DNA of 64,000 nt from the NCBI RefSeq assembly GCF_003334335.1, contig NZ_QOWQ01000013.1; one strand, 5' to 3'. The position numbers and the translations under genes were made by a program. The stretch's first letter is position 1. Every line of letters starts with the position of its first letter. The DNA comes from Escherichia coli. GTDB taxonomy: Bacteria > Pseudomonadota > Gammaproteobacteria > Enterobacterales > Enterobacteriaceae. Under the pieces are notes generated by a model that had not been told where the DNA came from, ran no database searches, and saw only the letters and a program-made list of their open reading frames with translations. Positions 18,153 through 18,317 of the stretch are shown piece by piece.

Positions 18153-18317
18153 TCACTCCACATCCTCCCTGCGTAACCCAATATCCCTCAACCGCTCATC
18201 ACTCATCTGCTGTAACACTCGTCGGGTCTGCATTTGCCGCCGCCAAAGCCTCACCGCCTGCCAGAGTTGCACAAGTCCAATAAACGGTGCTTTAGCTTTG
18301 TTTTCGTGAAATTCCAT
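18153..18317 (-). CDS. yjiS: DUF1127 small protein YjiS
   Basis: Not in ORF track (54 aa); manual translation of minus strand gives MEFHENKAKAPFIGLVQLWQAVRLWRRQMQTRRVLQQMSDERLRDIGLRREDVE. Confidence 0.8.
   Translation of the reverse strand: MEFHENKAKAPFIGLVQLWQAVRLWRRQMQTRRVLQQMSDERLRDIGLRREDVE

Follow-up and report, generated by a model that had tools for sequence, protein, structure and literature searches.

yjiS, a 54-codon DUF1127 gene at the right edge of the Immigration Control Region in Escherichia coli

The open reading frame (ORF) at positions 18153 to 18317 on the minus strand of the window, which is the whole 64,000-nucleotide stretch of Escherichia coli DNA analysed here, is the E. 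coli orthologue of yjiS, a known and already annotated small-protein gene. It is a core framework gene and not part of the defence cargo, and its stop codon marks the right edge of the Immigration Control Region (ICR) in Escherichia. Published work already covers the gene and its family, its place at the ICR edge and a first mechanism. Taken as a whole, the best explanation is a yjiS orthologue that belongs to the framework, delimits the ICR and would damp sensor kinases in the manner of its orthologues. This overall explanation is considered very probable.

The yjiS reading frame and its family

The yjiS coding sequence consists of 54 codons and a TGA stop, and the closest genomes carry the gene as yjiS in RefSeq. 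Minus-strand translation of positions 18153 to 18317 gives MEFHENKAKAPFIGLVQLWQAVRLWRRQMQTRRVLQQMSDERLRDIGLRREDVE followed by the stop, which is letter for letter the 54-amino-acid peptide reported in the earlier note. The ATG start is at positions 18317 to 18315. A Shine-Dalgarno sequence, GAGGAGG, can be read directly at positions 18324 to 18330 of the same strand, 6 nucleotides 5’ of the ATG at 18317. Counted from the first start codon after a stop, the mechanical ORF extends from 18153 to 18332 and is 59 amino acids in length, while the default cut-off of the ORF tool is 60 amino acids. The earlier observation that the ORF track had missed the gene is therefore plausible, and the value for annotation is a real 54-amino-acid gene lying under a 60-amino-acid cut-off.

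Support for the 54-amino-acid product comes from conservation of its start, which the upstream ATG does not share. The MEFHEN start is kept in seven of eight aligned yjiS homologues, and the GGAGG core of the ribosome-binding site is kept in six of seven loci from several genera (locus L014 has GGGGG). The true product could instead be a 59-amino-acid form beginning at the upstream ATG (positions 18332 to 18330), with MRRQQ added at the N-terminus. The frame is open from 18332, and some database entries are 58 to 59 amino acids long (P0022 and P0029). However, this ATG overlaps the GAGGAGG that serves the ATG at 18317, it is replaced by GCG in Citrobacter and by GTG in Klebsiella, and both the RefSeq and the K-12 annotation give 54 amino acids. 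The longer form is therefore regarded as very improbable.

An ORF of this size means nothing alone, as the window contains 265 six-frame ORFs of at least 54 amino acids, 143 of which are 54 to 80 amino acids in length. It is homology that sets the yjiS frame above chance. The sole Pfam match of the protein is PF06568 (DUF1127, now YjiS-like), with an E-value of 1.9e-12, a score of 47.1 bits and coverage of positions 1 to 37 of the 37-position model. The domain comprises residues 18 to 54 (positions 18156 to 18266, minus strand), and database relatives carry the same precomputed Pfam match.

The protein also has the other traits of a DUF1127 member, being about 50 amino acids long and arginine-rich with a D-I/V-G-L motif. 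The whole protein contains nine arginines (positions 23, 26, 27, 32, 33, 42, 44, 49, and 50), which make the domain arginine-rich, and the DIGL motif occupies residues 45 to 48. This motif is described as highly conserved (PMC11707872). Invariant residues in an alignment of eight enterobacterial homologues are T31, R32 and R33, Q37 to E41, D45, and G47 to R50. An NCBIfam search of YjiS returned no matches, NCBIfam having no model for the protein, and the naming therefore rests on Pfam and orthology.

The K-12 protein (b4341) is identical to that of the window at 51 of 54 positions (94%), and yjiR, an rpn-family gene and mdtM stand in the same order in both genomes. RefSeq names a 165-nucleotide gene yjiS in the best-matching genomes and in MG1655, and the identical 54-amino-acid protein is present in NCBI on 27 contigs as “DUF1127 domain-containing protein [Escherichia coli]”. 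The Pfam match, the K-12 identity and the RefSeq annotation together bear out the earlier assignment of the frame to yjiS and DUF1127. Homologues in Citrobacter and Klebsiella share 63 to 74% identity with YjiS.

Selection on the gene was measured with Nei-Gojobori estimates. The dN/dS ratio is 0.08 to 0.17 between E. coli alleles and 0.08 between K-12 and Citrobacter, with dS saturated in the other cross-genus pairs. These ratios indicate purifying selection on yjiS as a protein.

A chance ORF without a protein product is given next to no probability. Most of the 265 window ORFs of at least 54 amino acids are not genes, and a consensus promoter or terminator was not found at yjiS. Such a reading does not fit the Pfam E-value of 1.9e-12, the conservation across genera, a dN/dS well below 1, or the retention of the Shine-Dalgarno sequence and start. 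Translation of the Salmonella orthologue has moreover been detected by Ribo-seq and western blot, and a phenotype is known for the E. coli mutant. The chance reading is ruled out by homology and selection. Of the grounds for refutation named in the earlier note, neither applies, as DUF1127 homology is clear and translation has been shown for the Salmonella orthologue.

The right edge of the Immigration Control Region

The gene order in the window is yjiA, mrr, hsdR, hsdM, hsdS, symE with the symR RNA, a GmrSD-like gene, yjiS, yjiR, an rpn-family gene, and mdtM. The left framework gene, yjiA (positions 6719 to 7675, plus strand), matches the NCBIfam equivalog NF008578 with 682 bits against a cut-off of 361. 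The variable cargo (positions 7676 to 18152) contains mrr, hsdR, hsdM, hsdS, symE/symR, and the GmrSD-like gene.

The product of mrr (positions 7721 to 8635) is identical to that of K-12 at 302 of 304 residues. NCBIfam models are matched by hsdR, hsdS and symE, with hsdS below the curated cut-off. hsdM has sub-threshold NCBIfam matches only, and its name is taken from the RefSeq annotation of the best-matching genomes. The antitoxin small RNA symR (positions 15504 to 15580, minus strand) is full length, scoring 94 bits in Rfam RF01809 where the gathering score is 61, and is antisense to the 5’ end of symE (positions 15575 to 15916).

The two immediate neighbours of yjiS are those named in the earlier note, and their domains were confirmed. 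Downstream by 96 nucleotides and on the same strand is the GmrSD-like type IV restriction gene (positions 15963 to 18056, minus strand; 697 amino acids), with GmrSD_N (E 9.4e-35), GmrSD_C (E 1.5e-26) and DUF5655 (E 4.4e-14) domains in Pfam. This gene is intact in the window, with DUF5655 at the C-terminus. In the genome of O158:H23, the closest in RefSeq, and in the UTI89 and clone D i2 loci, which are more diverged, its counterpart is broken up into a DUF262 pseudogene fragment and a GmrSD ORF of its own.

On the other side is the divergent yjiR (positions 18494 to 19906, plus strand; 470 amino acids), whose product joins a GntR helix-turn-helix (E 2.5e-14) to an aminotransferase class I/II fold (Aminotran_1_2, E 9e-38), an arrangement known as the MocR architecture. 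In NCBIfam it comes closest to MocR-like factors, with every score below the curated cut-off.

Two further genes of the window were noted beyond yjiR. The rpn-family recombination-promoting nuclease gene (positions 20149 to 21105, minus strand), which lies in the rpnD position, is an intact ORF of 318 amino acids; rpnD is an annotated pseudogene in K-12. An ORF of 712 amino acids (positions 26745 to 28883, plus strand) corresponds in size and position to the “pentapeptide repeat-containing protein” of O158:H23. The O158:H23 gene is located between a DUF3343 gene and a yjiK-like gene, and K-12 has no gene there.

The right edge was located by megablast with window positions 17900 to 18700 as the query and 5,426 complete E. 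coli genomes as the target. Matches were found in 4,171 of the 5,426 genomes, and the GmrSD side of the query is covered in only 970. In a spread of 60 rows from the 4,171 genomes, the left ends of the partial matches fall at query positions 243 to 256. These correspond to window positions 18142 to 18155, or 0 to 11 nucleotides beyond the yjiS stop, with local-alignment ends being approximate to a few bases. Identity to K-12 is about 95% across yjiR, the spacer and yjiS, and all similarity is gone about 6 to 8 nucleotides past the TGA.

The junction at 18142 to 18155 thus separates conserved framework on the yjiS side from variable cargo, and restriction genes lie between yjiS and yjiA. The published limits of the ICR are likewise yjiS and yjiA (PMC3874165; PMC3874153). 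The role of right-hand anchor that had been claimed for yjiS is confirmed by this homology break, by the K-12 divergence and by the published limits. Recognition of yjiS sets the right limit of the defence island in the window to within about 10 nucleotides.

No att-like direct or inverted repeats of at least 8 nucleotides are common to the two junctions (positions 7640 to 7760 and 18040 to 18180). There is therefore no sign of site-specific insertion, and the absence of shared repeats is consistent with cassettes being exchanged through recombination within the framework genes on either side.

Compared with K-12, the island is a mosaic. The mrr product differs at 2 of 304 residues, yjiS differs at 9 of 162 nucleotides, and the segment from symE to yjiS has GmrSD in place of mcrBC-yjiV-yjiT. 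The dS between E. coli alleles of yjiS is 0.20 to 0.28. The best nucleotide identity of the region to any complete E. coli genome is only about 97 to 98.8%, which fits such a dS at yjiS beside a K-12-like mrr. An origin of the window outside E. coli, which identities this low might suggest, is rejected, since E. coli records contain the exact YjiS protein.

The distribution of yjiS was examined by blastn with the 165-nucleotide gene against the 5,426 complete E. coli genomes. The gene is full length in 3,737 genomes (69%), is present as a 3’ fragment only in about 422 (8%), and has no match in about 1,266 (23%). With 69% intact, yjiS falls short of a gene held by all or nearly all E. coli, and the figure is consistent with the literature wording of “most” E. 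coli. The anchor is accordingly not a universal one. As 31% of complete E. coli genomes are without an intact copy, the function of yjiS is dispensable, and those using it as an island landmark should expect it to be lost or truncated in this share. It is also observed that yjiS, described as the sole DUF1127 gene of E. coli, is missing from about 23% of complete genomes.

The fragment class, which includes UTI89 and clone D i2, has an 81-nucleotide remnant annotated as a 26-amino-acid hypothetical protein (L003, positions 15255 to 15335; L005, positions 16206 to 16286). This class lacks yjiR and mdtM, and an rpn gene adjoins the yjiS remnant. An rpn gene is also found beside the deletion that truncates yjiS in B2-type strains. 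The absent class has the order yjiA-brnA-brnT-IS1-mdtM, in which the island together with yjiS, yjiR and rpnD is replaced as a whole (yjiA to mdtM at positions 18475 to 20260 in L006 and 18210 to 19980 in L007). In genomes without an intact yjiS, the conserved edge is mdtM or yjiN/rpn. An independent survey lists yjiR and mdtM as accessory genes (PMC6550539).

Five loci from outside Escherichia, including two from Citrobacter and one from Klebsiella, were compared. All five have a MarR-MFP-DUF2955 efflux-like operon after yjiS (L008, 8314 to 10906; L012, 8330 to 10922; L014, 6319 to 8910; L016, 6313 to 8920; L017, 6315 to 8907), and the genes adjoining yjiS are not defence genes. Four of the five have the order mdtM-(rpn)-yjiR-177 nucleotides-yjiS-MarR-MFP-DUF2955-variable slot-yjiA. 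In these four the slot is either empty or occupied by BrnA, by a NERD/UvrD helicase, or by hsdR together with DUF5655. The contig of L014 ends at a type I restriction gene where yjiA would stand. The Klebsiella locus differs in that yjiL/yjiM-like genes, mdtM and yjiN come after its efflux operon, and yjiA is not in view.

Retention of the yjiR-yjiS pair beside an efflux neighbour in these loci marks the two genes as ancestral framework. Only in the absence of the three-gene efflux operon, the situation in Escherichia, does yjiS border directly on cargo, and so the right anchor of the island differs between genera. Within the sample examined, yjiS serves as the anchor only in Escherichia.

These loci bear on whether yjiS could be functionally part of the defence island, for example by regulating the adjacent GmrSD-like gene or being co-expressed with it. 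The two genes are on the same strand, 96 nucleotides apart, and no terminator is predicted in the gap, so transcription starting at the yjiS promoter could run through. Nevertheless, yjiS is kept with yjiR in genera where the efflux operon is its downstream neighbour, and within E. coli the 3’ neighbour varies while yjiS stays (yjiT in K-12). A GmrSD neighbour is present in only 970 of the 4,171 matching genomes, and homology breaks directly after the yjiS stop. A defence role is accordingly given very little credence, and yjiS is treated here as a framework gene.

The yjiR-yjiS spacer and the mode of action of YjiS

The divergent pairing of yjiR and yjiS and a spacer of 176 to 177 nucleotides are kept in all seven loci compared, namely the window, K-12 and the five non-Escherichia loci. 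Five ATACAGA/TCTGTAT heptamers lie between positions 18372 and 18493 of the window (18372 to 18378, 18402 to 18408, 18448 to 18454, 18466 to 18472, and 18487 to 18493). The heptamer at 18402 to 18408 is a variant, ATACAAA, with a C-to-T change. In a column comparison of the seven loci (two from E. coli, two from Citrobacter and one from Klebsiella among them), 33 of the 35 heptamer columns are invariant, against 47 of the 142 other spacer columns. The exact sequence TACAGA occurs 3 times within 100 nucleotides of the spacer and 30 times in the whole 64 kb.

Regulators of the MocR family usually recognise short boxes that recur close to divergent targets. The five conserved heptamers may be a YjiR operator, and control of yjiS by YjiR is a reasonable hypothesis. 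The array is a feature of the spacer to be considered in studies of YjiS function. YjiR itself is listed as a factor of unknown function (PMC9308461).

A candidate sigma-70 promoter for yjiS is located at positions 18390 to 18416 (minus strand) and is composed of TTAACC, a 15-nucleotide spacer and TAAAAC. It is graded as weak because a stricter scan for consensus promoters and terminators in window positions 17900 to 18700 found nothing. Genomic SELEX places RpoD promoters for both genes in the yjiR-yjiS spacer, and TTAACC-15-TAAAAG is given for K-12 yjiS (PMC3946193); the window hexamers are these with one change. Two of the heptamers overlap the proposed promoter.

Folding of the spacer between yjiS and the GmrSD-like gene (positions 18057 to 18152) gave no structure better than shuffled sequences (z −0.81). 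This segment has no predicted intrinsic terminator or stable structure, and read-through into the first cargo gene would be possible. Two candidate elements were set aside. An archaeal C/D-box snoRNA over the yjiS 5’ leader, suggested by a permissive Rfam search (E 0.12 to 0.14), is far below gathering and is a chance match. A PhoP or Pho box sought by eye in the spacer is unfit in both spacing and sequence.

In the best-supported view of the product, drawn from studies of its orthologues, YjiS would be a small protein that is made conditionally, binds the membrane peripherally and damps sensor-kinase signalling. It would be held to the inner membrane, on the cytoplasmic side, by an N-terminal amphipathic helix. 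Its C-terminal DUF1127 helix, rich in arginine, would contact sensor kinases (PhoR in E. coli and SsrA in Salmonella) and lower their output. The proposed damping would explain why pstS expression and phosphate uptake go up when yjiS is lost. The gene is probably expressed under certain conditions only, silent in rich medium and active in acidic minimal medium low in phosphate and magnesium. For the allele in the window, kinase binding is carried over from the orthologues and is held with moderate confidence.

In E. coli, a yjiS mutant shows raised pstS and faster phosphate uptake, and YjiS of the K-12 type binds PhoR in two-hybrid and far-Western assays (PMC12501420). E. coli YjiS also complements the pstS phenotype of an Agrobacterium triple DUF1127 mutant (PMC12501420). 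In Salmonella, the mRNA, ribosome footprints and tagged protein are seen only in SPI-2-inducing minimal medium (PMC11707872). The Salmonella protein is recovered in the inner-membrane fraction, from which salt releases it, and it pulls down SsrA/B; an amphipathic helix is predicted at its N-terminus, and single arginine-to-alanine changes have no major effect (PMC11707872). The AlphaFold model of YjiS is one long helix from residue 11 to 45, with low confidence (pLDDT 67). No solved relative turned up when the PDB was searched by profile, the sole match being a chance one to tankyrase (E 0.44).

The main rival to kinase damping is RNA binding. In that case YjiS would be a small RNA-binding protein affecting small RNA maturation and mRNA stability, like CcaF1 of Rhodobacter, and not a kinase binder. 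The two proteins share a Pfam domain, YjiS has an arginine-rich basic helix, and CcaF1 is documented as RNA-binding (PMC8034643, as cited in PMC12501420). Both YjiS and CcaF1 complement the Agrobacterium triple mutant (PMC12501420), which points to some activity common to the family. On the other hand, the Salmonella work gave no evidence of RNA binding by YjiS, whose partners were mainly inner-membrane proteins, and the enterobacterial proteins group in a clade of their own, distinguished by an additional amphipathic segment at the N-terminus (PMC11707872). RNA binding is accordingly considered unlikely, and damping of sensor kinases is kept as the preferred mode.

The spacer and the proposed mode can be joined in a single tentative reading, which is possible but doubtful. 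YjiR, as a pyridoxal phosphate (PLP)-dependent regulator, might act directly on yjiS and on its own gene through the five heptamers. A circuit sensing PLP or an amino compound might then have YjiS as its output and so tune the phosphate response of PhoR/PhoB. With no terminator after yjiS, the signal could also spill into the first restriction gene.

Comparison with known systems

The ICR framework was described by Sibley and Raleigh (2004). As far as that description is relayed in PMC3874165 and PMC3874153, mrr, hsdRMS, symE and a type IV enzyme are located between yjiA and yjiS, and the same is true of the window. The window does not differ in kind from the described ICR but has another combination of cargo, in which a K-12-like mrr and a type IA-family hsd system are retained and GmrSD replaces mcrBC.

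K-12 YjiS (NP_418761.1) has the same length of 54 amino acids, the same divergent yjiR partner and the same position at the ICR edge. At positions 7 and 24 the window protein has K and L, respectively, where K-12 has R, and at position 44 it has R where K-12 has K; these positions are within or close to the arginine-rich stretch. The two genes differ at 9 of 162 nucleotides, with an unusually high dS of about 0.20 on only 34 synonymous sites. The K-12 yjiR-yjiS spacer is 176 nucleotides long and about 95% identical to that of the window. The 3’ neighbour is the GmrSD-like gene in the window and yjiT-yjiV-mcrCB in K-12.

YjiS of Salmonella Typhimurium is, by description, also a DUF1127 protein of 54 amino acids with an amphipathic N-terminus, an arginine-rich C-terminus and the DIGL motif (PMC11707872). 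The functional data for this protein concern SPI-2 and SsrA/B, which are absent from E. coli.

SDP1 to SDP3 of Agrobacterium tumefaciens and CcaF1 of Rhodobacter contain the same Pfam domain as YjiS. YjiS and the Agrobacterium SDPs both bind PhoR, and the “homology” between YjiS and SDP1 is given as only about 24% (PMC12501420). The alphaproteobacterial DUF1127 proteins differ from YjiS in often being shorter and multi-copy, and CcaF1 binds RNA.
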